Source: Escherichia coli (GTDB taxonomy: Bacteria; Pseudomonadota; Gammaproteobacteria; Enterobacterales; Enterobacteriaceae). Taken from it: a stretch of 64,000 nucleotides of DNA. Shown here one piece after another: positions 3,461 through 48,566 of the stretch (the first letter of the stretch is position 1; each line of letters opens with the position of its first letter). The stretch lies in NCBI RefSeq assembly GCF_011045215.1, contig NZ_CP049201.1; one strand, 5' to 3'. The notes under the pieces were generated by a model that was not told the origin of the DNA, made no database searches, and was given only the letters and a program-made list of their open reading frames with translations. The position numbers and the translations under genes are program-made.

Positions 3461-4552
<1,092 letters not shown>

Positions 4553-4775: not shown

Positions 4776-7028
4776 TTACAAATAGAGATAGTTCAGCGGT
4801 TCTCCTGTTCTCCCTAAAAGAAGAGCGCTACGCCCAGGAATATTGATATTTAGAGTTCCGCCTCTAAGCATAAATGCTTTACCAGGGGGGATACTTTTGC
4901 GTGTATTATTAATAATAATGTTAACGCTATTACTCCCCATGTTTTTATATTTTCCAGGTTGCAATTTGTTAGGCCAGGCACCTTCAACTTCTTCGTTTCC
5001 TTTATTTATTATAACTAGTCCATCATGAGGAGAGTGATTAATGTTCACAGAATCCCCACGACTAAAGGCCAGAACGTTTTTAGTTGCAAATACACCCTCA
5101 AATGCGCTCCATATTCCTGCTTTATCTATATATAATGCGTGGAATTCATTGTAGAGCTGCTGATAGGTAGAGCAACCTTTATTAAGCCACGCCTCACCGC
5201 CGACACGCGTCGACCCATCATAATTTTTAATTTCAGTCGTTGATTTTAATACTTGGCCATCCCAGTAAACTAAAGGCCTGCTGAACGGGAGAGCGGCCAT
5301 ATATGCCATTGCTAATTGTTCATCTTGTTGATGGTTAAATAGAAAATCATTGAAAAGATTGCCATTGTTAGGAAAATCATGGTTAATGTTAATCAATATC
5401 CGTCTTTTTGATGGGATGCTTGAGATTGTGGAACCCGGTTTTGATGCAAGGGTTTGGAGATCGCCACCAAATGAAAAAGCTTTTATCGTCTTCATGAGCA
5501 ATGAAAAATCAATGGCGCTTAAATCATCTCTTTCATAAAGCAGCGATGACATTTGTTCTTCATCCAACTGACAAGTTACCAGATATTCCATGTAATTCAT
5601 GACGGCTTTTTCATGATATTTTGGGTTAAATAAGTTAGTATTGTGTAATCGCTCATTATAATTTTTAAGCGGTGGGGTTATTGATCTTTCTATTTGTTCA
5701 TGTTTTGAGTGTTTTGCTGCATCGTAACGTAAACCTCGTACGCCATATTTTCGCATTTCACGAACGTATTGATTTTGCAGCATAATAACCTGGTCACTTT
5801 TGGGGGTTGTTTTAGGCATTCCATTTAAACGCTTTTCTTTTAATGCATGGAGGTTTTCCCATTCATCCTTAGAAATATTATCTTTACTAGCTTCGAAGTC
5901 TTTTGCAGTGAGATGTATATCTTCTGGATGGATTTGTTTACGTTCTTTTGTTACTGGATCGATAATAAATGGAATCAAAACCTGACCTTGCCAATAGCCA
6001 GGGATACCACCTTCTATATCTTTACTGATCTTCGCTCGTATATCAGCAGAGGGATAATCCAGGTCATTTTTACCACTACCCCCGATTCCCATAAAGTTAA
6101 AAGTATAATCAGGAATGATATCGATACCAAATTTTTTAGCATCTTTAACCAATGCGATAAAATCCTGCAAATCTCCCATTGGATTGTGGATGGTACAAAG
6201 ATCTTCGGGTTGATAAGCGTGAAACCAGTAACCTTTTTCTTCTTCGGGAGTTTCTGGTCCGTCGGCACGGAAAGTTGTCACTGGAGGGATTTGTATATAC
6301 CCATAATGGCAACGTGCAAATTCAGACATATTTTCTCTGATCTGCTGGTAGGTGGCATTAAAAGCATGAAGAATCGCTTCGCCAGGTTTTTTGGGGGTGA
6401 TGATTTCACATTGTGATTTCTGAACAGCAGTAAGAGATTTACGCTCAAGTGTTTGCCGTAGATGTTCTGGATTGATTAGTATTTTAAATGTTTCTTGCTG
6501 TCCGGAAGGTGACGTCACGTTAATATTATATACATCGGCTGCCAGCTCATAGTCAGGAATGTTAATAGCATATGCAACATATTTATCTTTTGGGGAGGGT
6601 TTGTCAGATATAATGTGGGTGAAATGTTCAGCAGGACCATACTGGTGAACCCCCTTATTATATTCTCTTTAATTCATTGTATCTCTTTGATAAATCCATG
6701 TTTTTCCTTCTCCTATCCTGTCTGGCGCTGTAATACTACGCTGTGCAGCTTTATTCAGTTCACGGTAAGTTGTATCTGGAAAAAGGGAAATTTTATAATC
6801 GTTTTTTAACAGATCATTAATGATTTTTTCTGCGTGAAAAGTTGATATAATTTCTCTGTCTTTTAAATCCTGAGGATAAACTCCACAAGCATTAATAATA
6901 TTTGTTACACAGTTTAGATATTCTAATGTATTTAATTTGGAATTTAGATCCCCGTCAGTAATGTTCCATGATAACAATGTGGGGTTGTCGATAGGTAAAT
7001 TTCTTGGTCCTGGTTTTATAGAAAACAT
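4776..7028 (-). pseudogene. ygaQ: ygaQ-like alpha-amylase-family gene split by an in-frame TAA (ORFs 6669-7028 and 4776-6518)
   Basis: The 119-aa and 580-aa ORFs are in the same frame, separated only by TAA at 6669-6671 (minus strand) and 50 sense codons; GLRYDAAKH motif resembles alpha-amylase region II (GFRxDAAKH). Confidence 0.6.
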
Positions 7029-7587: not shown

Positions 7588-7663
7588 GGCCCTTTAGCTC
7601 AGTGGTTAGAGCAGGCGACTCATAATCGCTTAGTCGCTGGTTCAAGTCCAGCAGGGGCCACCA
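7588..7663 (+). tRNA. ileY: tRNA-Ile (anticodon CAU, lysidine-type; ileY/ileX-like)
   Basis: 76-nt sequence GGCCCTTTAGCTCAGTGGTTAGAGCAGGCGACTCATAATCGC...GGGGCCACCA with CAU in the anticodon loop and encoded CCA end; recognised as the E. coli minor tRNA-Ile. Confidence 0.93.
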
Positions 7664-8414
7664 AATCATCATTCATGTATCAGGAAGAGTTAAGGGTACA
7701 AGGGGTACTCGATGGCGGTCTATATTTCATGACTAACGCCATTTAAAGGAAGAAGTGCGGTGGGTGGTTTCGAATGAGGGCTGGTGTTTTGGTACGTGGC
7801 ACGCCACTGCAATGTATTTATCCATCAGTACTCATTCAAAAGTACCTGGAAAAAATGCCCGCTATGCCAAGCGGGCAAATTGCTTACATGTGGAATTAAG
7901 TAATTAACGATAAAGCCAGAGTATTATCATTTATTATACCCATTCATTTAATCAGGTTAATTACTCAAATCACTGAACTATTCTCTGTTCGCTCACTGAT
8001 GATGAGTGAGTACCACAACCAATGTATGTAGAACAATGCCGTAGAGTAAGGATGAAATGTCTCTGCCACGCCTTAAACATCTACTACTGACCAGAACACC
8101 CGCCGCAGGTAGATGAGTTTTGTGAGCGTTACAGGAGCGTGGCTATGCTCATTAACCAACGCTATTGAGATATAAATTTCTAACACTTGAAAAACGATTT
8201 TCACTAATAAATTATAACGGGTGTTTTTTATCATACAGCGAAATAACTTTTTGTTTATTAAATTTAACATTTTTGTGCTAATTTAATTAAAAAGTCCATG
8301 CGTAGCATGTGAAGCAGTTAATGCCAGCAATTGTCTCAAATGAGCGATTTTTTATAGTGACAAACAATAATAACATTAAAAATAGCCATGTAGACATTAA
8401 CTGAGGAATAGACA

Positions 8415-9764
8415 ATGTTAATTAATAAAAGCAACGGATTTAACGCTAGCGCAGTTTTGGGTAGTGGAAGTTATAATGAAAATAAATCTTCTAAACACAT
8501 GGAGCTACTAGCTCATAGTATTGTAAAATTAATTTGTAAGGAAGCTGCATCAGAGACGTATCGCGGTGCTCTTGAAACTTTACAAAAAATGATGTCTGAA
8601 TGTAAATATAAAGAAGGCAACGCCTTTGTCATTATGGGAGCTGGAGGACAATTAAAACGTATTAAATATGATGTTGATGAAAATAAATTAAAAATATTCA
8701 ACATATACTTTGATAATAATTACGAGGTAGTTACTGATGGTGAGCCTGACGTAGTATTTTTAAGCAAGCAGGAGTGGGAAAATCTTCTCATTAAATTAAA
8801 ACCGGAGATTAAAGAAAATGTGTTTTCTGAAAATAACAAATTATCGAGAGAAAATAATTTTGATCAGTATGTTCAATCCGCTAAAAGAAATGAACAGACC
8901 CTTTTCGATAATATAAGAAAAAGTGATTTTCATGTTGGTTCACTTAAGCCAGGTAGTATGAATAATGTTATTTTAGAAATGCCACCAAATGTCTGTATGG
9001 AATCACGTAATTCATATGAAAACCAAATAGATGAGATTTCATCTTTGTCAGAGTCAAAGGAACACCCCATAGATATTCAAGAAAAAACAGATGCGTTTGT
9101 GAATGAGTTCAGGGGGATATTATTTGATCAAAATGGAAGGTCTTCAGAGTTTCTACTTAATTTTTATGAATGTTGCTATGTGTTTTTACCAAGAGCGCAG
9201 CCTCAGGATAAAATCGAAAGCTATAATTCAGCACTGCAAGCTTTTTCCATCTTTTGTTCATCTACGTTGACACATAATAATATAGGCTTTGATTTCAAAT
9301 TATTTCCAGAAGTCAAGCTGTCTGGAGAACATCTTGAAACGGTATTCAAATACAAAAATGGCGATGATGTCCGGGAGATAGCCAAAATTAACATTACTCT
9401 CCAAAAAGAAGAGGGTGGCTTATATAATCTACGTGGATTGGATTTTAAGGGATGCTTCTTTTCTGGACAGAACTTCAGTAACTATGATATTCAATATGTG
9501 AACTGGGGAACGTCATTGTTTGATGTTGATACTCCGTGTATTTTTAATACGCCTGCTAACCATGAGAGTTATGAAAAATCATTAAAACCTGTAAGCGAAA
9601 ACGGTTTAAATGGAGTCTTATCTGATCGTAATAAAAAAATAAAAATGATCACGGGTGTGGCGCCATTCGATGATATTTTATTTATGGATGATGACTTTGA
9701 TGATAACTCCCCTGAGGATGCTCCCATTGAGAATAGTCCTGTTGTGAATAGTCCCCTTGTATGA
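8415..9764 (+). CDS. Pentapeptide-repeat-containing protein (ypjB/ypjC-region gene; EspX-like effector family possible)
   Basis: 449-aa AT-rich ORF; C-terminal stretch LRGLDFKGCFFSGQNFSNYDIQYVNWGTSLFDVD fits a pentapeptide-repeat pattern; acidic C-terminal tail. Confidence 0.55.
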   Translation: MLINKSNGFNASAVLGSGSYNENKSSKHMELLAHSIVKLICKEAASETYRGALETLQKMMSECKYKEGNAFVIMGAGGQLKRIKYDVDENKLKIFNIYFDNNYEVVTDGEPDVVFLSKQEWENLLIKLKPEIKENVFSENNKLSRENNFDQYVQSAKRNEQTLFDNIRKSDFHVGSLKPGSMNNVILEMPPNVCMESRNSYENQIDEISSLSESKEHPIDIQEKTDAFVNEFRGILFDQNGRSSEFLLNFYECCYVFLPRAQPQDKIESYNSALQAFSIFCSSTLTHNNIGFDFKLFPEVKLSGEHLETVFKYKNGDDVREIAKINITLQKEEGGLYNLRGLDFKGCFFSGQNFSNYDIQYVNWGTSLFDVDTPCIFNTPANHESYEKSLKPVSENGLNGVLSDRNKKIKMITGVAPFDDILFMDDDFDDNSPEDAPIENSPVVNSPLV

Positions 9765-10059: not shown

Positions 10060-10390
10060 GCGTTACGGTGCACCACGCCTGACTGAAGAACTGCGTGCTC
10101 AGGGTTACCACTTCAACGTAAAACCGTGGCAGGAGGTCCGGACTGAAAAAACTGCTCAGGACATCATCGGCAGGGAACGCACTGCTAGTCTGTAAACTGA
10201 ACCGACTGGGGCGCAGTATGTGGCATCTTGTCGTGCTGTTGGAGGAGCTGTGCGAACGTGGTATTAACTTTCGTGCTCTGGCCCAATCTATATTTGCCCA
10301 ACAATGGGGGGGCGAATGCTGTAAAAGTAAAACAATCTGCGATCTCAAAGTTATTGTGTGATTTTTATGTGAGCAGAAGATATTCATCAG
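10060..10390 (+). pseudogene. Degenerate serine DNA-invertase fragment (pinH-like) fused to a short unidentified upstream piece
   Basis: Frameshifted translation gives ...[52 protein letters not shown]..., matching the central region of Gin/Pin invertases ([30 protein letters not shown]); lacks the catalytic N-terminus and C-terminal HTH. Confidence 0.45.
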
Positions 10391-10699
10391 AAACGATTAT
10401 GTAAATCATTTTATTTTGCCAACGGCCTCATTGTCGAAAGAAAAGAATACGCCCGTGTTTCCTGAATAGATTGACTTTTTTATCCAACCACACTTCAGCG
10501 CACTGCGTTTAAAAAATGCCTCATTCTTATGCGGAATATCATCATTTCATCATGATGTCTTTGATGAGCGGTGAACACAATACACTTGCGCTGTCTCTTC
10601 AGGATGAATCCCCTGGTCTGGTGCCTGTGGGCTGATGTTGCAGCAAAGCTAAGGTCGCTTAAACGCTACTCAGTATTCACTTTTCAGAGGATGAAATTT

Positions 10700-13600
10700 A
10701 TGAACAGGACCAGTCCCTATTATTTTCGCCGCTCAGTACTTTCCTTATTGATATCTGCCTTAATATATGCCCAGCCTGGAGAGGCTGCTTTCACATCAAT
10801 CGTTACTGGTATCGTAAATGGTGAAACTGTTGATGGTGATCAAATAGTAGATGAACGTGGTACAACTAATGATATTCATATCATTAATCACGGCCGCCAG
10901 ACTGTAATTGGTGGGATGTCTAATGGAAGTATTATTGAAGTTGGTGGACAACAAGATGTAGCAAGCCATAATGATTATCAGGGGCAAGCTAATAATACAA
11001 TCCTTCATGGGGGTGCACAGGTAATTTATAATGGCGGGAATTCTACCGGTACGATAATCGAGAGTGGTCATCAGCAAGTTTATAACGGTGGTACCAGCAA
11101 TGGCACGATAATCGAGAGTGGCAATCAGTACGTTTATAAAGATGGTACCAGCAATGGCACGATAATTAAGAATGGTAATTCAGTCGTCGAAGGAGGGAGG
11201 GCGAACGGGACTGTCATCGATGGTGGTAAACAAACAGTAACAACTCAGGGATATGTTGACGGTACGACGATAAATAAGTCCGGTTATCAGGACATCATGC
11301 AAGGAAGTCAGGCAAAGAATACGACAATAGATGGGGGGCGGCAGTATGTGGACTCGAGTTTTGTAGAAACCACCATCATCAAAAATGGGGGCGATCAAAG
11401 AGCATATAAGAGCCATGCGCTGAACACTACGATAGATGGAGGTCGACAGTATATTGATTCAAGTACTGCACAAATAACCACCATTAAAAATGGAGGAACG
11501 CAACAATTAATTGCCAGCCAGGCTATGATCACCTCGATTGAAGGGGGAATGCAGACGCTGGAAAGTTCGTCAATGGCGTACAATACCACGATCTATTCTG
11601 GCGGGAAGCAAATTGTTGATAACACCAGCACCTCGGATGTTATTGAAGTTTATTCCGGTGGCGTGCTTGATGTTAGTGGTGGTACGGCAACAAATGTTAC
11701 CCAGCACGATGGTGCAATTTTAAAAACAAACACTAACGGTACGACGGTGAGCGGTACGAATAGTGAAGGTGCATTCTCCATCCACAATCACGTGGCAGAC
11801 AATGTGTTGCTGGAAAACGGTGGTCATTTAGACATAAACGCATATGGTTCGGCAAACAAGACGATTATTAAAGATAAAGGAACAATGTCAGTTTTAACCA
11901 ATGCTAAAGCTGATGCGACCCGAATAGATAATGGCGGGGTTATGGATGTTGCCGGAAACGCGACCAATACCATAATTAATGGTGGTACACAGAATATTAA
12001 TAATCATGGTATTGCCACGGGCACTAATATCAACAGTGGAACGCAAAATATCAAGAGCGGCGGGAAAGCTGACACGACAAATATATCCTCCGGGAGCCGG
12101 CAGATTGTTGAGAAAGATGGTACGGCAACTGGCAGCAATATTAGCGCTGGAGGCTCGCTGATTGTCTATACCGGCGGTATTGCACATGGGGTTAACCAGG
12201 AGACGGGCAGTGCTTTAGTTGCCAACACGGGTGCAGGGACTGATATCGAAGGATACAACAAGCTCTCTCACTTCACTATTACCGGAGGGGAGGCTAATTA
12301 TGTTGTGCTGGAAAATACCGGCGAACTGACGGTAGTGGCTAAAACCTCGGCGAAAAATACTACCATTGATGCTGGCGGTAAGCTGATTGTCCAGAAGGAG
12401 GCTAAAACAGATAGCACCAGACTTAATAATGGCGGCGTTCTGGAGGTTCAGGACGGTGGTGAGGCTAAGCATGTTGAGCAACAATCCGGCGGCGCATTAA
12501 TTGCTTCCACGACCTCCGGAACACTTATCGAAGGAACCAACAGTTATGGTGATGCTTTCTACATCAGGAATTCAGAAGCTAAAAATGTAGTGCTGGAAAA
12601 CGCTGGCTCATTAACCGTCGTCACTGGTTCCCGGGCAGTTGACACGATTATTAATGCCAACGGCAAAATGGATGTTTATGGAAAAGATGTTGGCACTGTA
12701 CTCAATAGTGCTGGCACCCAAACAATATATGCCAGTGCCACTTCTGATAAAGCAAATATCAAAGGTGGCAAGCAAACGGTATATGGTTTAGCCACTGAAG
12801 CAAATATCGAAAGTGGTGAACAAATTGTTGATGGTGGGTCAACAGAGAAAACACACATCAATGGTGGCACGCAAACCGTTCAGAATTATGGTAAGGCAAT
12901 CAATACCGATATCGTCTCTGGCCTACAACAAATTATGGCAAACGGGACAGCGGAAGGTTCCATTATTAATGGGGGTTCACAGGTAGTTAATGAGGGCGGT
13001 CTGGCTGAAAACTCGGTGCTTAATGACGGCGGCACACTCGATGTGCGGGAGAAAGGCAGCGCAACGGGGATACAGCAGAGTAGCCAGGGCGCTTTGGTTG
13101 CAACCACCAGGGCGACGCGGGTCACAGGAACACGCGCGGATGGCGTCGCGTTCAGCATCGAGCAGGGTGCGGCGAACAATATCCTGCTGGCAAATGGCTG
13201 CGTGTTAACCGTGGAGTCAGACACCACTTCCGCCAAAACACAGGTCAATACGGGCGGGCAGGAGATCGTCAAAACAAAAGCCACTGCGACAGGCACGACG
13301 CTCACCGGCGGCGAACAAATCGTCGAGGGTGTGGCGAATGAGACAACGATTAACGACGGTGGAATACAAACAGTTTCGGCTAACGGAGAGGCAATAAAAA
13401 CAACGATCAATGAAGGCGGTACGCTGACAGTTAACGATAATGGCAAAGCAACAGATATCGTCCAGAACAGCGGTGCCGCTCTCCAGACGAGCACGGCTAA
13501 CGGTATTGAAATCAGCGGTACTCACCAGTACGGCACTTTTTCCATTTCCGGCAATTTAGCGACCAATGCGTTGCTGGAAAATGGCGGTAATTTATTGGTA

Positions 13601-15433
13601 TTAGCAGGCACCGAAGCTCGCGACTCCACGGTTGGCAAGGGTGGTGCAATGCAAAACCTGGGTCAGGACTCCGCCACAAAGGTTAACTCTGGCGGGCAAT
13701 ATACCCTTGGGCGGTCAAAAGATGAGTTTCAGCCTCTGGCCCGGGCAGAAGATCTCCAGGTCGCTGGCGGGACGGCAATCGTCTACGCAGGTACGCTGGC
13801 GGATGCATCGGTCAGTGGCGCGACAGGAAGCCTGTCGTTAATGACGCCACGGGATAATGTTACGCCAGTTAAACTCGAAGGGGCGGTCCGGATTACCGAT
13901 AGCGCGACATTAACTCTGGGAAATGGCGTCGATACAACGCTTGCCGACCTGACGGCTGCCAGCCGGGGCAGTGTCTGGCTTAACAGCAATAATTCCTGTG
14001 CAGGTACCAGCAACTGCGAATATAGAGTAAACAGTTTGCTACTCAACGACGGTGATGTTTATTTATCAGCACAAACAGCAGCGCCTGCCACAACTAACGG
14101 TATCTACAATACGCTGACAACCAATGAACTTTCCGGTAGCGGTAATTTCTACCTGCATACCAACGTTGCAGGCTCCCGGGGCGATCAACTGGTCGTCAAC
14201 AACAACGCCACTGGTAATTTTAAAATCTTTGTTCAGGATACCGGCGTCAGCCCACAGTCTGACGATGCGATGACGCTGGTGAAAACAGGGGGAGGGGATG
14301 CTTCGTTTACGCTGGGCAATACCGGCGGTTTCGTTGATCTTGGGACCTATGAGTATGTCCTGAAAAGTGACGGCAACAGCAACTGGAACCTGACCAATGA
14401 TGTCAAACCCAACCCGGATCCCAACCCAAATCCGAAGCCAGATCCAAAACCAGACCCAAAACCGGATCCGAAACCAGACCCGACTCCCGATCCAACGCCG
14501 ACACCCGTTCCGGAGAAACGCATCACGCCTTCTACGGCAGCCGTACTCAATATGGCTGCAACATTACCGTTGGTATTTGATGCTGAGCTAAACAGTATTC
14601 GCGAGCGGTTGAACATAATGAAAGCGAGTCCACACAACAATAATGTCTGGGGGGCGACGTATAACACCCGTAATAATGTCACCACCGATGCGGGTGCCGG
14701 GTTTGAGCAGACGCTGACCGGAATGACAGTGGGGATCGACAGCCGTAATGATATTCCTGAAGGAATTGCCACGCTGGGCGCTTTTATGGGTTATTCCCAT
14801 TCACATATCGGTTTTGATCGCGGAGGACATGGCAGTGTGGGCAGTTATTCTCTGGGCGGCTATGCCAGTTGGGAACATGAAAGTGGTTTCTATCTGGACG
14901 GTGTCGTGAAGCTGAACCGTTTTGAAAGTAACGTAGCCGGTAAAATGAGCAGCGGTGGAGCCGCCAATGGCAGTTACCACAGCAACGGGCTGGGCGGTCA
15001 CATTGAAACCGGGATGCGATTTACCGATGGTAACTGGAACCTGACGCCGTATGCATCGTTAACGGGGTTCACCGCTGATAACCCCGAATATCATTTATCC
15101 AATGGCATGAAATCGAAATCAGTCGATACCCGCAGTATATATCGTGAACTGGGGGCAACGCTGAGTTACAACATGCGTCTGGGGAACGGTATGGAAGTTG
15201 AGCCGTGGCTGAAGGCGGCTGTGCGCAAAGAATTTGTCGATGATAACCGGGTGAAGGTGAATAATGACGGTAATTTCGTCAATGATTTGTCGGGCAGACG
15301 TGGAATATACCAGGCAGGTATTAAAGCCTCATTCAGCAGTACGTTAAGCGGGCATCTCGGGGTGGGGTATAGCAACGGTGCCGGTGTGGAATCCCCGTGG
15401 AACGCGGTGGCTGGTGTGAACTGGTCGTTCTGA
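10700..15433 (+). CDS. ypjA: AIDA-I-type adhesin-like autotransporter (ypjA-like)
   Basis: ORF 10571-15433; probable start ATG 10700 (MNRTSPYYFRRSVLSLLISALIYAQPGEA signal peptide); passenger built of ~19-aa imperfect repeats (NGTIIESG.QQVYNGG...), PNPDPNPNPKPDPKPDP linker, C-terminal beta-barrel ending ...AGVNWSF. Confidence 0.85.
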   Translation: MNRTSPYYFRRSVLSLLISALIYAQPGEAAFTSIVTGIVNGETVDGDQIVDERGTTNDIHIINHGRQTVIGGMSNGSIIEVGGQQDVASHNDYQGQANNTILHGGAQVIYNGGNSTGTIIESGHQQVYNGGTSNGTIIESGNQYVYKDGTSNGTIIKNGNSVVEGGRANGTVIDGGKQTVTTQGYVDGTTINKSGYQDIMQGSQAKNTTIDGGRQYVDSSFVETTIIKNGGDQRAYKSHALNTTIDGGRQYIDSSTAQITTIKNGGTQQLIASQAMITSIEGGMQTLESSSMAYNTTIYSGGKQIVDNTSTSDVIEVYSGGVLDVSGGTATNVTQHDGAILKTNTNGTTVSGTNSEGAFSIHNHVADNVLLENGGHLDINAYGSANKTIIKDKGTMSVLTNAKADATRIDNGGVMDVAGNATNTIINGGTQNINNHGIATGTNINSGTQNIKSGGKADTTNISSGSRQIVEKDGTATGSNISAGGSLIVYTGGIAHGVNQETGSALVANTGAGTDIEGYNKLSHFTITGGEANYVVLENTGELTVVAKTSAKNTTIDAGGKLIVQKEAKTDSTRLNNGGVLEVQDGGEAKHVEQQSGGALIASTTSGTLIEGTNSYGDAFYIRNSEAKNVVLENAGSLTVVTGSRAVDTIINANGKMDVYGKDVGTVLNSAGTQTIYASATSDKANIKGGKQTVYGLATEANIESGEQIVDGGSTEKTHINGGTQTVQNYGKAINTDIVSGLQQIMANGTAEGSIINGGSQVVNEGGLAENSVLNDGGTLDVREKGSATGIQQSSQGALVATTRATRVTGTRADGVAFSIEQGAANNILLANGCVLTVESDTTSAKTQVNTGGQEIVKTKATATGTTLTGGEQIVEGVANETTINDGGIQTVSANGEAIKTTINEGGTLTVNDNGKATDIVQNSGAALQTSTANGIEISGTHQYGTFSISGNLATNALLENGGNLLVLAGTEARDSTVGKGGAMQNLGQDSATKVNSGGQYTLGRSKDEFQPLARAEDLQVAGGTAIVYAGTLADASVSGATGSLSLMTPRDNVTPVKLEGAVRITDSATLTLGNGVDTTLADLTAASRGSVWLNSNNSCAGTSNCEYRVNSLLLNDGDVYLSAQTAAPATTNGIYNTLTTNELSGSGNFYLHTNVAGSRGDQLVVNNNATGNFKIFVQDTGVSPQSDDAMTLVKTGGGDASFTLGNTGGFVDLGTYEYVLKSDGNSNWNLTNDVKPNPDPNPNPKPDPKPDPKPDPKPDPTPDPTPTPVPEKRITPSTAAVLNMAATLPLVFDAELNSIRERLNIMKASPHNNNVWGATYNTRNNVTTDAGAGFEQTLTGMTVGIDSRNDIPEGIATLGAFMGYSHSHIGFDRGGHGSVGSYSLGGYASWEHESGFYLDGVVKLNRFESNVAGKMSSGGAANGSYHSNGLGGHIETGMRFTDGNWNLTPYASLTGFTADNPEYHLSNGMKSKSVDTRSIYRELGATLSYNMRLGNGMEVEPWLKAAVRKEFVDDNRVKVNNDGNFVNDLSGRRGIYQAGIKASFSSTLSGHLGVGYSNGAGVESPWNAVAGVNWSF

Positions 15434-16111: not shown

Positions 16112-17464
16112 TTATGGGTTTAACTCAAACTGTTCCCCGTTTATTAATTTTCGCAATAAGTCAAGTGCCTCAGATGAGTATTTTCCGACACCACTTTTCC
16201 CAGATTTAATGAAAACATGATAATTGTTGTCTGATGCTTTAATGTTGAAGTCGGTTAGTTTTCTTAATTTTTCGAATTCTTGATTAACATAGTGCCACGA
16301 TCCCATGTCGAGAATCCTTGCCAGATCAGACATTGTATATGGGAAACTAGCATTTAGTGCCTGCCCATTATTGAGTTCAGCGATACCATACATTTTTGCT
16401 AATGCATCATCATGCTCTGCAATATTGCGGAACATCTCAAAATCGTATGGAAGTTCTTGTTTAACAAGGGATTCTGATGCGAATGTGTACGTTCTGGCTA
16501 GAAATGCACGCACAAGTTTTGGATTAACGCTAATTTCCGGTGTATTAGATGATAACGCATCAAAAATCCAACCAAAATTATTTGCGTATATCACCTTGAT
16601 TCGAACGCTTTTATTCTCACCAACACCGATTAGCAATTCCTTTTGATGAGAACCAGTGGCCTCGCAGTCCTTACTGAAGGAGACAAGATAAATATTTGGA
16701 ATCAATGCATTATTGGGAGCGATGATTTCATCTATATCAGAGAGAATTGCCTTTATGTTTTCATCATTGATACTGTACCCAAAGAAAAACAAGGGGTGTT
16801 CAGCAAAATATGTTAGCAACTTAGCACTGATATATTTCTTACGTTTATAGAAATCAACATAATCTTCATTTGTAATAACAATACTTTCAACTTCATGACT
16901 GCTACCATGAATTTTCATGATTTCGCCATAAGATGAATAATTCACTTTAACAACGTTATGACCAACTATTGCCTGATAATTGTCAAATATTTTTTCTAAT
17001 GTGTCGTCATAATTTGTTGTGATTATTGCATGAGGTTTTACTTTCCTTAATTTCTGAACTTCCTCTGTATATTCCATGTTCGAGAAATCAACGGAGTTTG
17101 ATAATTCATTCAGAATGGATGCAATTTCATGCTTAATATAAATATCTTTTGGAGTCGTTCCTTCAAAGTATGTCTCTGGATAGCGATCCTTGCCATCATC
17201 CCAAGCCCATTCAGCATAGAAGTCACAAAAATCGCTAGCAATCAAAGGTTTGTTATCACCCTTTGTTTGGCTGTAGTAACCATAAGGGCGTTTGATCAAG
17301 GGGCATATTTCCGCTAGTTGCTTTAATAGACCTTCCCAGTCAGGCGCTTTTATATATCGTTGTGAAATACCTGCACCCATGAATAAAATGGGTTGGACTT
17401 GTAAGTTTTCAAGGCAAGATTTAACATCTTCGATTATTTCTTCTTGATATTCCGTAAAGTCCAT
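16112..17464 (-). CDS. Stand-alone SIR2-family (ThsA-type SIR2_2-like) protein with unknown C-terminal domain; candidate NAD+-depleting anti-phage effector
   Basis: 450-aa AT-rich ORF; sirtuin-like motifs ILFMGAGIS (GAGxS), ITTNYD, KIHGSSHE (HG) and FFFGYSINDENI line up with ThsA SIR2-domain motifs as I recall them; no partner gene within ~0.7-0.9 kb. Confidence 0.7.
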   Translation of the reverse strand: MDFTEYQEEIIEDVKSCLENLQVQPILFMGAGISQRYIKAPDWEGLLKQLAEICPLIKRPYGYYSQTKGDNKPLIASDFCDFYAEWAWDDGKDRYPETYFEGTTPKDIYIKHEIASILNELSNSVDFSNMEYTEEVQKLRKVKPHAIITTNYDDTLEKIFDNYQAIVGHNVVKVNYSSYGEIMKIHGSSHEVESIVITNEDYVDFYKRKKYISAKLLTYFAEHPLFFFGYSINDENIKAILSDIDEIIAPNNALIPNIYLVSFSKDCEATGSHQKELLIGVGENKSVRIKVIYANNFGWIFDALSSNTPEISVNPKLVRAFLARTYTFASESLVKQELPYDFEMFRNIAEHDDALAKMYGIAELNNGQALNASFPYTMSDLARILDMGSWHYVNQEFEKLRKLTDFNIKASDNNYHVFIKSGKSGVGKYSSEALDLLRKLINGEQFELNP

Positions 17465-18352: not shown

Positions 18353-19357
18353 TCACAATCTTCCGCCGTTTTTGACTGTTGCAGATATACTTTTAGCAGG
18401 TTTTAAATGCCTGGAGATTTCTTTCTGTTCTCGACGGATTTTGTATGAATTAATTTCTTCATAATCCTTGTGTTTATTTATTTTTGATAAATCAACCAAG
18501 AGATTATTTCTTATCATCCACTTTACAATTCGCTTGTTGATATCTTTATAGAGAGGGCCGCCTTTATATTTATAGAAGTGAATATCATGAATTTCACTGA
18601 TGAAATCAAGTATGGATAAGATTTCTTTATAATCACCAATGTAACTGTTAATGGTGAAATGGTCTTTATTAAGTTCTATTTTGAATCCATGTTCAGAAAG
18701 GTAATACAAGAAAAAGGCTGAGTCGAGATCACAAAAATCTACATGCAGCGTTCTTCTGTCAAATTTATCAATATGCGAGAGAATGATATCATGTAATTCA
18801 TAATCATATACATTTTCAATAAATCCTTTCCCTGAATGATCAATTTGATTGACATTGCATCCAGCATCTATTGCTACGGATAAAACTTCCGGGGAAAGGG
18901 GCATGAAGAGAATATTCATTCCTTTTTTATCGATGTGATTTATATCACAACCAGCATTAATTAATTCTGTCAATCCTTCAGCATTCCTGTAATGTTCAAA
19001 AATGCATGTGTAGCCATTAGTATCCGTATGCGAGGTGTCTAAACCCAGTTCAATCAGTTTCTTCAGTATTTCTGGATTTTTTTGATGAAAGAGCGCATTT
19101 TGCCCATGTCCGTTGATATGGTGTATATTAATTCCATAACTGAGCAGGCAATCCATGGCTTCCAGGGTTCTGCAGGCAAAAATGGCATTGTTGCCGTTAC
19201 TGTTAACAGCATTGATGTCATAGCCTATTTTTAAAGCTTTCTTTATATCATCAGGTGATCTTGCATTGAAGAATGATTCAGAAATGGCAAGGTCTAATGC
19301 CTTTTCTAATAATCCCTTTTGTAATAAGGATATGACTAATTCCATAAACACCCCCAT
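18353..19357 (-). CDS. Ankyrin-repeat protein (paralog 1)
   Basis: 334-aa ORF with repeated G.DIN..D..G.N.LF blocks (~33-aa periodicity) and a C-terminal region shared with ORF 31629-32573 (..VKWMIRNNL../..IKWFIRNDI..). Confidence 0.7.
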   Translation of the reverse strand: MGVFMELVISLLQKGLLEKALDLAISESFFNARSPDDIKKALKIGYDINAVNSNGNNAIFACRTLEAMDCLLSYGINIHHINGHGQNALFHQKNPEILKKLIELGLDTSHTDTNGYTCIFEHYRNAEGLTELINAGCDINHIDKKGMNILFMPLSPEVLSVAIDAGCNVNQIDHSGKGFIENVYDYELHDIILSHIDKFDRRTLHVDFCDLDSAFFLYYLSEHGFKIELNKDHFTINSYIGDYKEILSILDFISEIHDIHFYKYKGGPLYKDINKRIVKWMIRNNLLVDLSKINKHKDYEEINSYKIRREQKEISRHLKPAKSISATVKNGGRL

Positions 19358-29820: not shown

Positions 29821-31050
29821 TTATGGTGCAGGATAGGGGTTATTTTTAACTAATTGTTCTTTAATGGGATTTGTTGTCATGGAATGACAGGGTGTCAGAA
29901 GATGCAGGTGCAGGATTTGGTGGAAAGGATGTGCAGTGGCATGTAACAGAGACATGCCCCTGCGCCTGAGAAGTGCCACAATATGGCCGAGCAATACAAA
30001 CCACGAATGCAGACGACGCTGGCGGGGTATCTGACGAGCTGTATTGTGCAGTTTGCTCCTGAGTTGAATGACACCCACTGTTTCCTGTTGTCTTTCCAGA
30101 CGAATTTTTTCTTCAAGCTGAAGGATTTTCTCCAGAATCGTTTCCCGGTTTGCAGCCTGTTCTTCAGGCTCGCATGATGGCACTGGCACTGGCACTGGCA
30201 CTGGCACTGGCACTGGCACTGGCACTGGCACAGTCTGCTGTTGCTCTTTTTTCAGTAAAGCCAGGTGCTCTGGTGTAAAATCAATCTGTGTTTGCAGAGA
30301 AGACCAGCCATACTTTTTTCCAAGCTGAGACGCTTTAAAGGCAATGCCCTGGTACTGAAATGAAAAGCCGTTCATTTTTCCCGTTGAGGCGATATTAGGT
30401 TTACAGTTCACGCCTTCCTTTTCCAGCATAGTGATAAAAGTCAGCAAATCAGGGCGGCCGGTTAACGCATTATCAATCAGGCTCTGCAGAGTGGACCTGG
30501 GGCAGGGAGTTGTCGTTCTTTCAGCCATCATCAGCTCGTTGCGGGAAGGCTTTCTTTTCTCCTGACTATGACTACTGATTGCAGATGTGGTTTGAGTGAG
30601 TTTGTGGACTTTCTCCAGCTCGCTGATAATCCGGGTACTGATAAGATTTTCATTTTTCCCAAGGTACAGCTTCCCACCGACCATGTTAATTCTGTTAGCT
30701 ATTATATGGATATGCTGCCCGTCCGAATCATCGTGCATGATATAGCAGCGAAGATGGGTTTCAGTGAATCCCATCCGGGTCATATAATCGTCAGCGAATG
30801 CCGCCCATTGTCTGACTGACAGTGTTTCTCCCTTTGGCAGGCGAAGCGAATTATGCCAGACAGGTTTGGCGACACCGGGGCGCAGTAGTCTTGTGCCTTC
30901 AAATTCACTGATAAGTTCAGCAGCAGTGCTTCCCGTCATGTTGCCACCGATAATATAAGGCGTGATTTTGTGGTGAGATCCTGACTTAAGGCTATAGAGA
31001 ACAACACCTGCGAACTGTTTACCCCGCTTTATTTTCTGCATACCTTTCAT
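29821..31050 (-). CDS. Mobilization relaxase (MobA/MobL-like) with internal (VP)n linker; C-terminal tail of doubtful authenticity
   Basis: Three-histidine relaxase-type motif HDDSDGQHIHIIANR; start overlaps the mobC-like stop (ATGA at 31047-31050); low-complexity tail after the VP repeat. Confidence 0.65.
   Translation of the reverse strand: MKGMQKIKRGKQFAGVVLYSLKSGSHHKITPYIIGGNMTGSTAAELISEFEGTRLLRPGVAKPVWHNSLRLPKGETLSVRQWAAFADDYMTRMGFTETHLRCYIMHDDSDGQHIHIIANRINMVGGKLYLGKNENLISTRIISELEKVHKLTQTTSAISSHSQEKRKPSRNELMMAERTTTPCPRSTLQSLIDNALTGRPDLLTFITMLEKEGVNCKPNIASTGKMNGFSFQYQGIAFKASQLGKKYGWSSLQTQIDFTPEHLALLKKEQQQTVPVPVPVPVPVPVPVPVPSCEPEEQAANRETILEKILQLEEKIRLERQQETVGVIQLRSKLHNTARQIPRQRRLHSWFVLLGHIVALLRRRGMSLLHATAHPFHQILHLHLLTPCHSMTTNPIKEQLVKNNPYPAP
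30178..30231. repeat. Perfect hexanucleotide tandem repeat (TGGCAC)x9 inside the relaxase gene
   Basis: Read directly; encodes a run of 8-9 Val-Pro dipeptides on the minus strand. Confidence 0.95.
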
Positions 31051-35600: not shown

Positions 35601-38600
35601 TCATTTTCCTAATTCTCCAGCTAAAAGTTCAGCCTGCTTCAAAACAGTCTCTGTGGCGAGCAATGACATATCAGGCGGATAACCATATTTTTTGAGCAGA
35701 CGTTTTACCACCACGCGAATTTTTGCTCTTGCTGCTTCTTTCACTGTCCAGTCAAGACTGACATTGTTGCGGATAGCCTCCGTAAGTACGACTGCCAGTT
35801 CTCGTAGTTTTTCCTTTTCCATTAACTCGCGAGCACTGTCGTTATCTGCAACAGCAGAATAGAAGGCATATTCATAAGCGCTGAGGTTTAACTGGCTGGC
35901 AAGGCTGTCAGATTCCTGGATAGTCTTGGCAAGCTTGATTAGCTCATCAATTACCTCCGCTGCTGTCAGTACCTTGTTCTGGTAGCCATTGATTGCAGAG
36001 GTCAGCATATCAATCAGTTTTTTGCCTTGGGTGATACTTTGATTCGAGCGAACTTTAATCTCGTCAGAAAGCAGTTTTTTAAGCGTTTCCAAAGCAATAT
36101 TTCTGTGTTGGTAATCCTTCATTTCCTGAAGGAATTCTTCAGAAAGAACGGAAATATCTGGCTTTTGTATCCCAGCAGCGTCAAAAATATCAACAACTTT
36201 ATCGGTAACCAGAGCCTGATCGATAGTCTGTTTTACCCGAACTTCCAGACTGTCATTGTGTTCTTCTTCTGATCCGTCTGAGTTTTCAGTAAATTTATTC
36301 AGTCTGGCTTTTACTGCCTGGAAGAATGCTACTTCGGGTGCCGCTTCCATTGCTTTATCGTGCGGTGTCGCCAATGCAAATGCCTGCGACAAGGCTGCAA
36401 CCGCAGCCAGGAAACGCATTTTACCTTTACCGTTATCCAGCCCTAAAATATGGTTTTCTGATTCAAGAATAATTGTCAGGCGTTGTGAAGTAGTTGCGGC
36501 AAAGTAAGCTTTGTAATCGTAGCCATGCATCATGCCTTCCAGGATTTCCAGCTTTTCCTGCATGAGCGTTACAGCTTCTTCCTGAACCTCAGCAGGATCT
36601 CCACGTCCACCTGCATCAGAGTAAAAGGAGAGGGCTTCTTTTAAATCAGAGGCAATGCCCAGATAGTCAACAACCAGACCGCCTATCTTATCTTTATACA
36701 CACGGTTCACACGGGCAATTGCCTGCATGAGGTTGTGGCCTTTCATTGGTTTGTCGATATACAGCGTATGCATGCTGGGAGCGTCGAAGCCGGTTAACCA
36801 CATATCACGCACTATCACCAGTTTCAGCTTGTCGTCGTCATCCTTCATACGATTAGCCAGAACCTGACGTTCTTTTTTTGTGGTGTGGTGTTTAGCGATT
36901 TCTGGTCCGTCAGCAGCAGAAGAGGTCATGACGACTTTAATCACGCCATCATTTAGATTATCGCTGTGCCATTCAGGTTTTAACTCTATGATTTCTTTAT
37001 AAAGTTCAGCAGCAATACGACGGGACATGGTGACAATCATGCCCTTGCCATGATCGGCATTAGATTTTAAGCGCTGTTCAAAGTGCTGAACCATATCCGC
37101 CGCAATAGCTTTAATACGTTTTGAACTGCCAATCAAACCTTCGATTCTGGCCCATTTAGACCGTTCTTTCTGGGTAAGCGTCAGCTCGTCTTCGTTAAAC
37201 TCATCGTCGAAGTCTTCAATTAGCTGGCGACCTTCGTCACTGATGGCAATTTTGGCAAGACGGCTTTCATAGAAGATACGCACGGTTGCACCGTCTTCTA
37301 CGGCCTGTGAGATATCGTAGATATCAACGTAGTTACCAAAAACAGCAGGTGTGTTTACGTCCGTTTTTTCTATGGGGGTTCCGGTAAAGCCAAGATAGGT
37401 AGCATTGGGCAAGGCATCACGCATATATTTGGCAAAGCCGTAAACGGTGCGTTTACCTGTTACGTTGCCTTCGCTGTCTTTCACGTCAACTTCTTTGGCG
37501 CTGAAACCGTATTGTGAACGGTGGGCTTCATCAGCGATAACGACAATATTGGTTCTGTCTGACAACAACTCATAGATATTGCTGCCATCATTAGGCTGGA
37601 ATTTTTGAATAGTGGTAAACACCACACCACCAGAGGCTACGCGCAAATATTCTTTGAGTTCTTCCCGGTTGTCGGCCTGTTTTGGTGTCTGACGAAGTAG
37701 CTAGGTCGCGGAAGAGAACGTACCGAATAGCTGATCATCCAAATCGTTACGGTCAGTAATCACAACAACTGTCGGATTATCCAGCGCCAGCACAATTTTC
37801 CCGGTATAAAACACCATCGAAAGCGATTTACCGGAACCCTGAGTATGCCAGACTACGCCCGCTTTGCGATCTCCGGTTTTTTGCGCATTAACAAGATCTT
37901 TACTGTTACGTCCCTGCTGGCGCAGTGCCACTTCGGCAGAGGGGGAGTCCGCATTCACCGCTGAGGCACGAATAGTGGAAAGAACTGCTGCATTGACCGC
38001 GTAGTACTGGTGATAAGCCGCCATTTTTTTAACAGTACGGATACTGATAATCCCTTTGCTGTCTTCATGTTTGCTGGCCTCAAACACGATAAAGTGGCGG
38101 ATCATATCCAGCAGCGTTACAGGATTAAGCAACCCCTGTAATAAAACTTCAAGCTGTGGTTGGGTACTGGTGGCTTGCGTTTTACCGTTAGCAGTTTTCC
38201 ACGTCATATAACGACTGAAATCGGCAGAAACCGTCCCCGCTTTGGCTTCCAGCCCGTCAGATATCACATTAAAAGCATTGTAGTTAAACAGACCGGGGAT
38301 TTGGTTCTGATAGGTTTTAATCTGATTATAGGCACCTGTTACCGTAGCATTTTCGTCAGCGGCATTTTTAAGTTCGATAACGACTAATGGCAGGCCGTTG
38401 ATGAATAAAATAAGATCAGGTCGGCGGGTATGATTGCCTTCTTTGATGGTGAGCTGATTAATGACCAGAAATTCATTATTAGTGGGATCGTTAAAGTCGA
38501 TCAGGCAGGCCAGCTCTCCTTGTGTATTACCATCCTTACTGACTTCGATATTGATCCCTTCGGTCAACAGGCGATGAAAGGCCAGATTGTTTGCCATTAG

Positions 38601-38840
38601 ATCAGGTGTGCTGATCTGCATCACCTGTTTCAGGGCTTCCTCACACTTCTGTTCACTAAGGTGCGGATTCAGGCGTTGTAGAGCAATACGCACCTTATCT
38701 TCAAGGATAACCTGCTGATAGCTACGTAACGGATTGATTCCACTGGGTTCAATGTCCGGGCCGTAAACATACTCATAGCCCAGCCCTTGCAGGTGCTCAA
38801 TTGCCATTACTTCAATATCGGATTCGGTCATCTTTGCCAT
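35601..38840 (-). pseudogene. hsdR: Type I restriction enzyme R subunit HsdR interrupted by an in-frame amber codon
   Basis: ORFs 37701-38840 (N-terminal, helicase motif I GSGKS) and 35601-37646 (C-terminal) are in the same frame, separated by a single TAG at 37701-37703 (...[33 protein letters not shown]...). Confidence 0.8.
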
Positions 38841-46807: not shown

Positions 46808-48037
46808 TTATGCGGCAATAACTTTGCATTTTTGAGACGAAACATAGTCACTCCACCATTGCATGAGAACCACCCGTTCAGTGAGATACTCTGCACGATT
46901 GTAGGCTGCAATTATTTCATCTTTCTTCGAGTGGGCAAGGGCGGCTTCTAAGACATCAGTCCTAAACTTGCCAGACTCCTCAGCAGCCGTTCTAGCAATG
47001 GATCGCATACCGTGAGCTACAAGCTCACCTCCGAAACCCATACGGATTATGGCCGCATTAGCTGTTTGTTCATGCATGTGATTGAGTGGAGCTTTGATAC
47101 TGGGGAACACCCACTCTCTATGCCCGCTGATGACTTTCATTAAATCCAAAACTCGCAAAGCTTCTTTGCTCAGTGGAACTTTGTGAGGCTTCTTCATTTT
47201 CATAAACTCCGCCGGGATGTTCCACATGCCAGTTTCAATATCAATATCTGACCATCTTGTGCGAACAGCTTCACCTGGGCGAACCCATGTGAGAAGTTGC
47301 CACTCAATCAGTAGCCTTGTTTCCAAACGGATAGAAGCATTGTTTAGAGCAACCAAGAAGCGAGGGAGTTCGGAAGGGGGTAATGCTGGCATATTCTGTT
47401 TTTTTGGCTTGCTGAACCGTTGCCCCAGGTTGTCTGCCGGGTTGAATTCTATGAGTTCTTCTGTTGCTGCATAGCGGAAAATTTCATTCAGGCGGGATAT
47501 GATGCGGCGAAGTGTTTCAAGGACACCTCGTTTTTCTATGGGTTCTAAATGCTGTTTAAGCATTTTAGGGCGAATCTCCTTAATTGGGGTATCACCCAAT
47601 GTGGAAAAGATATTTCTCTCTAGGCTTCGCCAGATGTCGTTAGCATGATCTTGGGAGATGCCTGACGTTTTGACTTTCTCATCAAGCCACTTCTTGGCTA
47701 CTGCTTGAAATGTATGTTCCGTGGCATCTTTCAGTGCATTGGCTTTTTGGTTGTTATGAACTTGGGGGTCTATACCATTTGTAAGCAACGACAAGTATTC
47801 ATCACGTAAAGCTCGTGCCTTCGCAAGTGTAAGGTGAGGATAGGTTCCTAAGCTCACCTTAGTTCGCTTTTTGGTCACAGGCACTGCATATCTGAAATAC
47901 CAATTTTTCTTCCCTCCCTTCGCCAGGGGAGCGATTCGCAACAGCAAACCATCGCCGTCAAAAAGGTTAACCTCTTTTTCGGCAGGTTTGGTGCTTTTGA
48001 TTTCAGTGTCAGTGAGCTTCTTAGCGATTTTGGCCAT
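46808..48037 (-). CDS. P4-type tyrosine integrase
   Basis: ORF 46808-48118; likely start MAKIAKKLTDTEIK (48037, ~409 aa); C-terminal catalytic-domain residues (...HGMRSIARTAAEE...); located 166 bp from the ssrA 3' end, same orientation. Confidence 0.85.
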   Translation of the reverse strand: MAKIAKKLTDTEIKSTKPAEKEVNLFDGDGLLLRIAPLAKGGKKNWYFRYAVPVTKKRTKVSLGTYPHLTLAKARALRDEYLSLLTNGIDPQVHNNQKANALKDATEHTFQAVAKKWLDEKVKTSGISQDHANDIWRSLERNIFSTLGDTPIKEIRPKMLKQHLEPIEKRGVLETLRRIISRLNEIFRYAATEELIEFNPADNLGQRFSKPKKQNMPALPPSELPRFLVALNNASIRLETRLLIEWQLLTWVRPGEAVRTRWSDIDIETGMWNIPAEFMKMKKPHKVPLSKEALRVLDLMKVISGHREWVFPSIKAPLNHMHEQTANAAIIRMGFGGELVAHGMRSIARTAAEESGKFRTDVLEAALAHSKKDEIIAAYNRAEYLTERVVLMQWWSDYVSSQKCKVIAA

Positions 48038-48203
48038 GTTTGGGACCCTCGATTTTAGGACCCATCTTCGTGGGTCCCATTCAGGGTGCCATAACTCGTA
48101 GTTCTCAGCAATTCTCACTAGACTACAATAGACGTAAAAAAGCCCGCAGAGCTTGTGCTGTGCGGGCTTAGTAGACTTTACTGAACTTCAGTACATCAAT
48201 ATT

Positions 48204-48566
48204 TGGTGGAGCTGGCGGGAGTTGAACCCGCGTCCGAAATTCCTACATCCTCGGTACTACATGCTTAGTCAGTCTTTACATTCGCTTGCCAGCTGCGGAC
48301 GGACACGCCACTAACAAACTAGCCTGATTAAGTTTTAACGCTTCAACCCCAGGCAGGGCTTCCACGCGATCTCTTTTGGGTTTGACCTCTCTTGATCCCC
48401 GTCCTAAGAGCGGAGGCTAGGGAGAGAGGGCTCTAAGCAGGTTATTAAGCTGCTAAAGCGTAGTTTTCGTCGTTTGCGACTATTTTTTGCGGCTTTTTAC
48501 GAGGCCAACCGCCCCTCGGCATGCACCTTGGGTTTCGCAAATCCCGTCGAATCCAGAATCAGCCCC
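48204..48566 (-). ncRNA. ssrA: tmRNA (SsrA)
   Basis: Reverse complement reads GGGGCTGATTCTGGATTCGACGGGATTTGCGAAACCCAAGGTGCATGCCGAGGGGCGGTTGGCCTCGTAAAAAGCCGCAAAAAATAGTCGCAAACGACGAAAACTACGCTTTAGCAGCTTAA...GCTCCACCA, i.e. E. coli tmRNA including the ANDENYALAA tag-encoding segment; 363 nt. Confidence 0.97.

Follow-up and report, generated by a model that had tools for sequence, protein, structure and literature searches.

An intact allele of ypjCB between ileY and ypjA in Escherichia coli: a single gene behind K-12 ypjC and ypjB, probably a dispensable accessory gene with a constrained C-terminal domain

Background

In Escherichia coli K-12, the region between the tRNA gene ileY and the autotransporter gene ypjA is annotated with two small genes, ypjC and ypjB. 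The stretch of DNA analyzed here, which we call the window, comprises 64,000 nucleotides of E. coli contig NZ_CP049201.1 (assembly GCF_011045215.1), and in it the same position is occupied by one AT-rich open reading frame (ORF) of 449 codons. This raises the question of which gene the ORF represents, whether selection still acts on it, and what its product may do. An initial annotation, made from the letters of the sequence, had described a pentapeptide-repeat protein with an acidic C-terminal tail, possibly type III effector-like (EspX family), encoded next to a tRNA-Ile gene in a region that is rich in pseudogenes in K-12. In this work the ORF was analyzed by profile searches, comparison with other E. 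coli genomes, substitution analysis and structure prediction. Overall, the results are best explained by an intact ypjCB allele, probably a dispensable accessory gene whose C-terminal domain is under constraint.

Results and discussion

ypjC and ypjB are the halves of a single gene

The ORF, on the plus strand, starts with ATG and runs for 449 codons, the stop codon not included; the longest stop-free run in the other five frames of the same interval is at most 86 codons. Its GC content (33.9%) is lower than that of the window as a whole (44.3%). The initial annotation had placed this AT-rich ORF between a tRNA-Ile gene and an autotransporter gene, and both neighbors were located: ypjA (also named EhaD) downstream and, upstream, a tRNA gene whose 3' end points toward the ORF and which ARAGORN labels as Met, the RefSeq annotation as tRNA-Ile and the record of O157:H7 Sakai as ileY.

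The translated ORF matched the NCBIfam model NF050179, 'YpjCB family', with 926.1 bits (curated cutoff, 650), and the alignment places residues 1-449 on profile positions 1-465. Two Pfam domains of unknown function (DUFs) were found within this single 449-aa frame, DUF5507 (PF17612) at residues 1-160 (E 1e-85) and DUF5508 (PF17621) at residues 195-449 (E 5e-165). In addition, the protein is 100% identical to the ypjCB product WP_097470686.1 of E. coli PapM-32-1, which was isolated from baboon stool. The score above the curated cutoff, the two DUFs in one frame and the position between ileY and ypjA all agree with membership in the YpjCB family; the full-length profile match and the synteny are those of K-12 ypjC/ypjB and of ECs_3517, the intact counterpart in O157:H7 Sakai, annotated as 'ypjB, hypothetical protein', and nothing material differs. 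It is therefore near certain that the ORF is an intact ypjCB allele, that is, a member of an already annotated E. coli gene family, and its identity in itself is nothing new. Among the PHROG families the sole strong match was phrog_30093 (unknown function), with a near-full-length score, which looks like the same family as YpjCB; PADLOC gave no match.

Comparison with K-12 ypjB and ypjC, which the initial annotation had suggested, identified the ORF as their intact counterpart, and the K-12 copy is a pseudogene with an internal stop. A single in-frame stop at codon 161 (Q161*; translation KRNE*NLF; codon 161 of the window gene is at 8895-8897) separates ypjC (b2650), the '18 kDa' N-terminal product of 160 aa, from ypjB (b2649), the other half. 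The DUF5507 profile has 160 positions and the DUF5508 profile 263, the match to the latter beginning at M195, and these boundaries coincide with those of K-12 ypjC and ypjB. Because of the Q161* split in K-12, DUF5507 and DUF5508 are the halves of one gene and not natural domains; it is possible that translation in K-12 restarts at M195, which would match the length of the DUF5508 profile. The allele in the window is one of the intact 449-aa forms, and it differs by 5-12% in DNA from the K-12, O157 and 484-aa type classes.

ypjCB is an E. coli-restricted orphan

The gene is carried by 3,077 of 5,426 complete E. coli genomes (about 57%), chromosomally throughout, and most of these copies are 90-95% identical in DNA to that of the window. 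A plasmid collection returned four matches, three of which are records of 4.8-4.9 Mb, effectively chromosomes. Searched exhaustively with phmmer, 1.84 billion representative proteins yielded 45 matches, 44 of them E. coli-type sequences or fragments with 45-97% identity; a single distant match, a PA14-repeat protein that shares the short motif GCYYSDQNF, was rejected as a chance similarity. In a scan of the GTDB species representatives, which relies on exact peptide patterns, only two matches were obtained, with 82-86% identity to the E. coli gene: one on a 2.8-kb contig of a metagenome-assembled genome of 'Planococcaceae' (UBA3370), the other on a 291-bp contig with 0.59x coverage in an assembly of Arthrobacter agilis. 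These two occurrences are probably contamination of public assemblies. From the phmmer and GTDB results together, ypjCB is therefore an orphan restricted to E. coli.

Protein anatomy, allelic diversity and selection

YpjCB is predicted to be an acidic, soluble protein of 449 aa. Its net charge is about −21 (sum of 30-residue blocks), and a hydropathy scan of the whole protein reached a maximum of 0.62 over 19 residues (Kyte-Doolittle, KD19) and revealed no hydrophobic signal peptide or membrane segment. The first 28 residues include 21% serine, 18% asparagine and one acidic residue; alleles vary here in sequence and keep the composition. The linker that precedes the C-terminal domain carries, in some alleles, an in-frame insertion of 35 residues after residue 209. 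When the C-terminal domain (residues 215-402) was modeled alone with AlphaFold2 (AF2), the mean predicted local distance difference test score (pLDDT) was 75.9 and the predicted template modeling score (pTM) 0.76; the model shows three helices and a three-stranded beta-meander, followed by short strands about every 5 residues over the pentapeptide-like stretch described below. Searched against PDB structures, this domain model gave no significant match and returned no pentapeptide-repeat protein. A Foldseek search of the PDB with the full-length AF2 model was discarded as meaningless (E of at least 0.017, TM of at most 0.11).

The acidic C-terminal tail of the initial annotation was confirmed, given that the last 29 residues have a net charge of −8. 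In the tail motif FDDILFMDDDFDD, 10 of 13 positions are invariant in 17 aligned sequences, namely F418, D419, I421, M424, D425-D427, F428, D429 and D430. The tail resembles the C-terminal peptide of the single-stranded DNA-binding protein SSB (DDDIPF) and certain eukaryotic short motifs; this is a lead only, and in YpjCB the motif is internal.

Among intact alleles the DNA differs by as much as 12%, and the products have 449, 457 or 484 aa, which makes at least three length classes; every length difference is in frame. Mosaic blocks in the alignment of 17 sequences indicate intragenic recombination. The ratio of nonsynonymous to synonymous substitution rates (dN/dS) was estimated by the Nei-Gojobori method for the ten pairs formed by five alleles, four intact ones and that of K-12. 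For the whole gene it is 0.7-1.1 in nine pairs and 0.28 for K-12 versus MEI2B. Residues 1-130 gave 0.83-1.65, with 1.2-1.65 in eight of the nine computable pairs (K-12 versus MEI2B is not computable), and the linker (131-214) gave 1.0-2.0; for the C-terminal domain the ratio is 0.25-0.7 in nine of the ten pairs and 1.09 for the window versus O157. The pentapeptide-like stretch accumulated 0-4 nonsynonymous changes per pair.

Alleles separated by 70-151 substitutions remain open. A random substitution in this ORF has a chance of about 3-5% of introducing a stop codon; for the most divergent intact pair, with 151 differences, the neutral probability that none arose is 3e-4 to 6e-3. The identity to K-12 is 92.8% in the ypjCB coding sequence, 97.3% and 98.9% in the flanking intergenic DNA, and about 96.5% in the gab genes. 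The simplest reading of these data is that ypjCB is a real protein-coding gene in which the C-terminal domain is constrained and the N-terminal half is relaxed or diversifying.

Recurrent inactivation, and whether ypjCB is a leftover

To follow the integrity of the gene, 18 carriers were taken at even steps down the ranking of the complete-genome matches and their annotation was inspected. The gene is intact in six of them, about two-thirds of the copies being inactivated. The K-12-type stop Q161* occurs in five carriers; the remaining lesions are C41*, Q119*, two frameshifts, an IS5 insertion, a truncation and a partial copy that covers 89% of the gene. Together these lesions represent at least five independent inactivations of ypjCB. 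The simplest reading is that the gene is dispensable in many lineages.

Alternatively, ypjCB could be a leftover of evolution: acquired horizontally and now without function, it would drift and be on the way to loss, and its intact copies would simply not yet have been hit. The broken state of about two-thirds of the sampled copies through at least five independent lesions, the whole-gene dN/dS of 0.7-1.1 and the absence of relatives beyond E. coli would all be expected in this case, and the neighboring amylase gene is also a pseudogene in the window, in K-12 and in O157. However, an ORF that stays open across up to 151 substitutions is improbable under neutrality, as given above; the 449-, 457- and 484-aa variants are all in frame; the N-terminal half is far less conserved than the C-terminal domain, the pentapeptide-like stretch and the acidic motif; and deletion of the K-12 fragment gave a phenotype (PMC3646849). 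We consider the leftover hypothesis rather unlikely, and prefer the reading of ypjCB as a dispensable accessory gene with a constrained domain.

A short pentapeptide-like stretch

Within the C-terminal domain, residues 337-371 form seven consecutive units (YNLRG, LDFKG, CFFSG, QNFSN, YDIQY, VNWGT and SLFDV) with hydrophobic centers at a period of five and D or N at position i-1 in five of them; the degenerate units EEGGL and DTPCI flank these seven canonical repeats. The period-5 score of the stretch was equalled in 31 of 20,000 shuffles of the protein. This score missed the annotated repeat region of EspX1, being specific to canonical A(D/N)LXX repeats and not a general detector. Among 17 aligned alleles, 30 of the 35 residues are invariant.

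The Pentapeptide model PF00805 did not match the whole protein at E<=10, and excised segments scored 14.7 and 15.9 bits (E 0.01-0.02) against a gathering cutoff of 20.2. When a profile of the C-terminal domain was compared with the PDB sequences, the best match was the Qnr protein 3pss, in register, at a chance-level E of 0.28. Pentapeptide-repeat proteins are conventionally defined by at least eight tandem repeats. YpjCB shares with these proteins (PF00805; the right-handed quadrilateral beta-helix fold of Qnr, MfpA and Rfr) the in-register alignment to Qnr and its seven A(D/N)(L/F)xx-like repeats, also in register, and differs from them in its sub-gathering score, in that the seven repeats make up 8% of the protein, and in the lack of a fold match in the PDB searches. 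The stretch is genuinely pentapeptide-like, conserved and beyond chance, yet it is short (under two coils, by our estimate) and sub-threshold. Thus the repeats of the initial annotation are present as a seven-repeat stretch, whereas the profile check that was to support them stayed below the threshold.

Comparison with EspX1 and the effector question

The EspX family was represented in our comparison by EspX1 (ECs_0025 in the Sakai record), EspX2-7 not being compared individually. BLASTP of YpjCB against Sakai EspX1 gave a best E of 2.3, and hhalign of the two family alignments a probability of 0.1%, so membership in the EspX family, raised as a possibility at the outset, is not supported. The two proteins are alike in length (473 aa for EspX1, 449 for YpjCB), in GC content (32% and 34%), in being restricted to Escherichia, and in having a weak, sub-threshold pentapeptide-like region about two-thirds along (residues 303-377 in EspX1). 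In contrast, they show no sequence or profile similarity, and EspX1 alone matches Qnr-type models: it has a weak match to the Qnr pentapeptide NCBIfam models (E 5e-4) and 18 bits to Pfam Pentapeptide_4, whereas YpjCB matched in NCBIfam at E<=10 only its own family and no Qnr-type model.

None of the effector families in Pfam and NCBIfam was matched by YpjCB, and none of the PDB chains was matched by the whole protein at E<=10. The YpjCB profile gave three chance-level matches in the PDB, and SopA, NleL and PipB2, which we take to be present in that database, were not among them. Judged from sequence and by the family models, YpjCB is not detectable as an EspX protein or as a pentapeptide-repeat protein. 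The Pentapeptide model gave no match above its threshold, and the ORF belongs to a named family that is neither an established effector nor an established non-effector. Around the gene, no type III secretion system (T3SS), chaperone, secretion gene or effector prophage adjoins ypjCB among the larger ORFs of the window, and the literature library searched gave no paper linking the names ypjB, ypjC or ECs3517 to effectors.

Nevertheless, YpjCB might be translocated or secreted, as a substrate of type III or another non-Sec route, and act on host or competitor cells; by analogy with EspX and PipB2, and without detectable homology to them, it would then act through the pentapeptide-like mini-solenoid and the acidic linear motif. 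The Ser/Asn-rich residues 1-28, with one acidic residue, no Sec signal and a composition kept across alleles, are consistent with this idea, as are the fast-evolving N-terminal half with its mosaic alleles and the intact gene in O157:H7. So is the fact that ypjCB is a tRNA-adjacent orphan with 34% GC restricted to E. coli, just as EspX1 is low-GC and found in Escherichia only; H-NS and Hha bind the region, as is often the case for virulence genes. However, besides the lack of similarity to EspX1 and to any effector family in Pfam or NCBIfam, and of literature ties for its names, the neighbors of ypjCB are an autotransporter gene and an ssrA-linked mobile/defense island instead of T3SS, chaperone or secretion genes, and 57% of complete genomes have the gene, among them strains taken as lacking the locus of enterocyte effacement (LEE), such as K-12, a soil isolate and the baboon commensal. 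In effectors the N-terminal secretion region is usually conserved and the C-terminal part variable; in YpjCB this pattern is reversed. We therefore regard an effector-like YpjCB as unlikely.

A more specific form of this idea, slightly less likely again, is that of an exported, E. coli-specific effector or interaction factor, in which the fast-evolving N-terminal half would supply a composition-based export signal and variable targeting, and the conserved C-terminal mini-solenoid together with the largely invariant FDDILFMDDDFDD would engage a conserved host or bacterial partner. The frequent inactivation of ypjCB in commensal and laboratory lineages would then be the loss of a niche-specific trait.

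Possible role of YpjCB

To return to ypjCB as a dispensable accessory gene, its product may, tentatively and with low confidence, be a protein-binding factor of the bacterium itself. Binding would fall to a module made up of the conserved C-terminal domain together with the acidic tail, either within the cell or on its surface; the gene, under the control of H-NS and Hha, would affect community behavior, the ypjC fragment being tied by the K-12 data to biofilm colonization resistance, and many lineages would lose it through mutation.

The regulatory and phenotypic data come from studies on ypjC. An RpoD promoter with an H-NS site has been listed in the ypjC-ileY spacer of K-12 (PMC3946193); the published hexamers, TTATCA-18-TTTAAT, occur in the window only in antisense and inside the ORF, at chance frequency, and were not used. 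Hha binds the ypjC region, and ypjC was induced 9-fold in a Hha assay in K-12 (PMC2408971). In mixed biofilms ypjC was induced about 2-fold, and upon its deletion the enteroaggregative E. coli strain 55989 colonized the K-12 biofilm better; no ypjC mutant could be recovered in 55989 (PMC3646849). An accessory gene that was acquired horizontally, is silenced and has some connection with community behavior would fit these K-12 data, which give no mechanism.

Several observations weigh against the role proposed here. Constitutive expression of ypjC was without phenotype (PMC3646849), and the K-12 phenotypes concern the truncated fragment of 160 aa and could reflect polar effects. A whole-gene dN/dS of 0.7-1.1 with frequent inactivation is also expected of a decaying gene; simple disorder and an export signal explain the Ser/Asn-rich, acid-poor N-terminus equally well; and the full-length AF2 model is poor (pLDDT 40.6). 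The alignments used in hhalign held scant diversity (Neff 1.2), and a remote homology to EspX or to other effectors is possible. Finally, neither experiment nor homology assigns a biochemical function to YpjCB.

A partnership with the adjacent gene also has to be considered, in which YpjCB would be an accessory factor for the expression, modification or function of the YpjA/EhaD autotransporter. The order ypjCB, remnant, ypjA is constant in the inspected loci with enough flank, even when a phage-like element lies directly upstream of ypjCB, and the reported induction and phenotype are related to biofilms. However, about 0.9 kb, containing a recombinase remnant and a small ORF, separates the two genes; one may be intact where the other is broken, ypjA being the intact one in K-12 and ypjCB in MEI2B-1023; and YpjCB has no known autotransporter accessory domain in Pfam or NCBIfam. 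This partnership seems improbable. Very improbable is a Qnr/MfpA-like DNA mimic that binds DNA-processing enzymes, for which the in-register Qnr protein as best PDB sequence match of the C-terminal profile, the acidity of YpjCB and the short strands about every 5 residues in the AF2 model could be invoked.

Genomic neighborhood

The features discussed are collected in Table 1. The reading frame of ypjA/EhaD opens at a GTG at 10571, and the annotated start is at about 10700. The window coordinates of the recombinase remnant were transferred from an annotated locus with an offset of 586. All the inspected loci with sufficient flank have ypjCB, the recombinase remnant and ypjA in this order, and it is near certain that ypjCB is a horizontally acquired, AT-rich gene in a fixed module formed by ileY, ypjCB, the recombinase remnant and ypjA.

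Table 1. Features of the ypjCB locus, in window coordinates
Feature	Coordinates	Strand	Evidence
tRNA gene ileY, anticodon CAT	7588-7663	+	ARAGORN; Rfam tRNA model, 70.8 bits
Shine-Dalgarno-like GAGGA	8403-8407	+	7 nt 5' of the ATG; direct sequence reading
ypjCB coding sequence, 449 aa plus stop, intact	8415-9764	+	NF050179, Pfam DUFs, RefSeq identity
N-terminal 28 residues, Ser/Asn-rich	8415-8498	+	composition, hydropathy
N-terminal region, residues 1-130, fast-evolving, mosaic alleles	8415-8804	+	dN/dS, alignment; AF2 low-confidence
Variable linker, residues 131-214	8805-9056	+	alignment; dN/dS; pLDDT <50
Conserved C-terminal domain, residues 215-402	9057-9620	+	AF2 domain model, dN/dS
Pentapeptide-like stretch, residues 337-371, seven in-register repeats	9423-9527	+	shuffle test, PF00805, alignment
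Acidic-hydrophobic tail motif, residues 418-435, FDDILFMDDDFDDNSPED	9666-9719	+	charge; 17-allele alignment
Recombinase (pinH-like) remnant	10125-10292	+	annotated as an incomplete recombinase-family pseudogene in the strains inspected with enough downstream flank
ypjA/EhaD, AIDA-type autotransporter	10700-15433	+	ORF; annotation in PapM-32-1, K-12, O157 and others

In E. coli EC-1639, a phage-type integrase, a CI repressor and a hypothetical gene stand directly upstream of ypjCB in place of ileY, and the ypjCB-ypjA unit is unchanged. The ileY sequence itself varies between strains, at window positions 7632, 7635 and 7654 (approximately alignment columns 50-56 and one further 3' position), and at two positions the window differs from both K-12 and PapM-32-1. 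Adjoining ileY, an alpha-amylase-family gene of the ygaQ/ygaR region (4776-7028, minus strand) contains one in-frame stop at 6669-6671; the annotation gives it as intact in PapM-32-1 and as a pseudogene of the internal-stop kind in K-12, O157 DEC4E, EC11 and MEI2B-1023. Farther upstream, glaH/csiD (3462-4439) is 96.6% identical to PapM-32-1, against 99.9% for the adjacent gabT, gabD and lhgO, and this drop in identity suggests a local recombination patch.

Downstream of ypjCB, most strains have a 39-aa ORF after the recombinase remnant; the remnant may be what is left of an invertible or mobile element. The start of the passenger region of ypjA (10700-11442) has 78% identity to K-12, with indels, and the surrounding non-coding DNA about 99%; the autotransporter is hypervariable. 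Between ypjA and ssrA lies an integrative island of 32.7 kb (16112-48566), unlike CP4-57 of K-12 and unlike the island of PapM-32-1, which has 20.3 kb and shows that the window represents another strain. The island of the window includes a SIR2-like gene (16112-17464), an ankyrin-repeat gene (18353-19357), Mu-like and Tn5-like transposases, a MobA/VirD2 relaxase (29821-31050), a type I restriction-modification system in which two ORFs (35601-37646 and 37701-38840) make up a split hsdR, a large serine recombinase and, beside the transfer-messenger RNA (tmRNA) gene (48204-48566), a tyrosine integrase (46808-48118).

Conclusions

The main yield of this analysis is a clean-up of the annotation: two K-12 'genes' and two Pfam DUFs are the halves of one gene, and the EspX or effector label is unsupported for ypjCB. 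The gene illustrates well what an orphan restricted to E. coli can look like: its alleles are deeply diverse, its C-terminal domain is constrained, and it has been lost repeatedly. Were YpjCB shown to be exported or to bind a partner, it would be a new factor in the colonization biology of E. coli.

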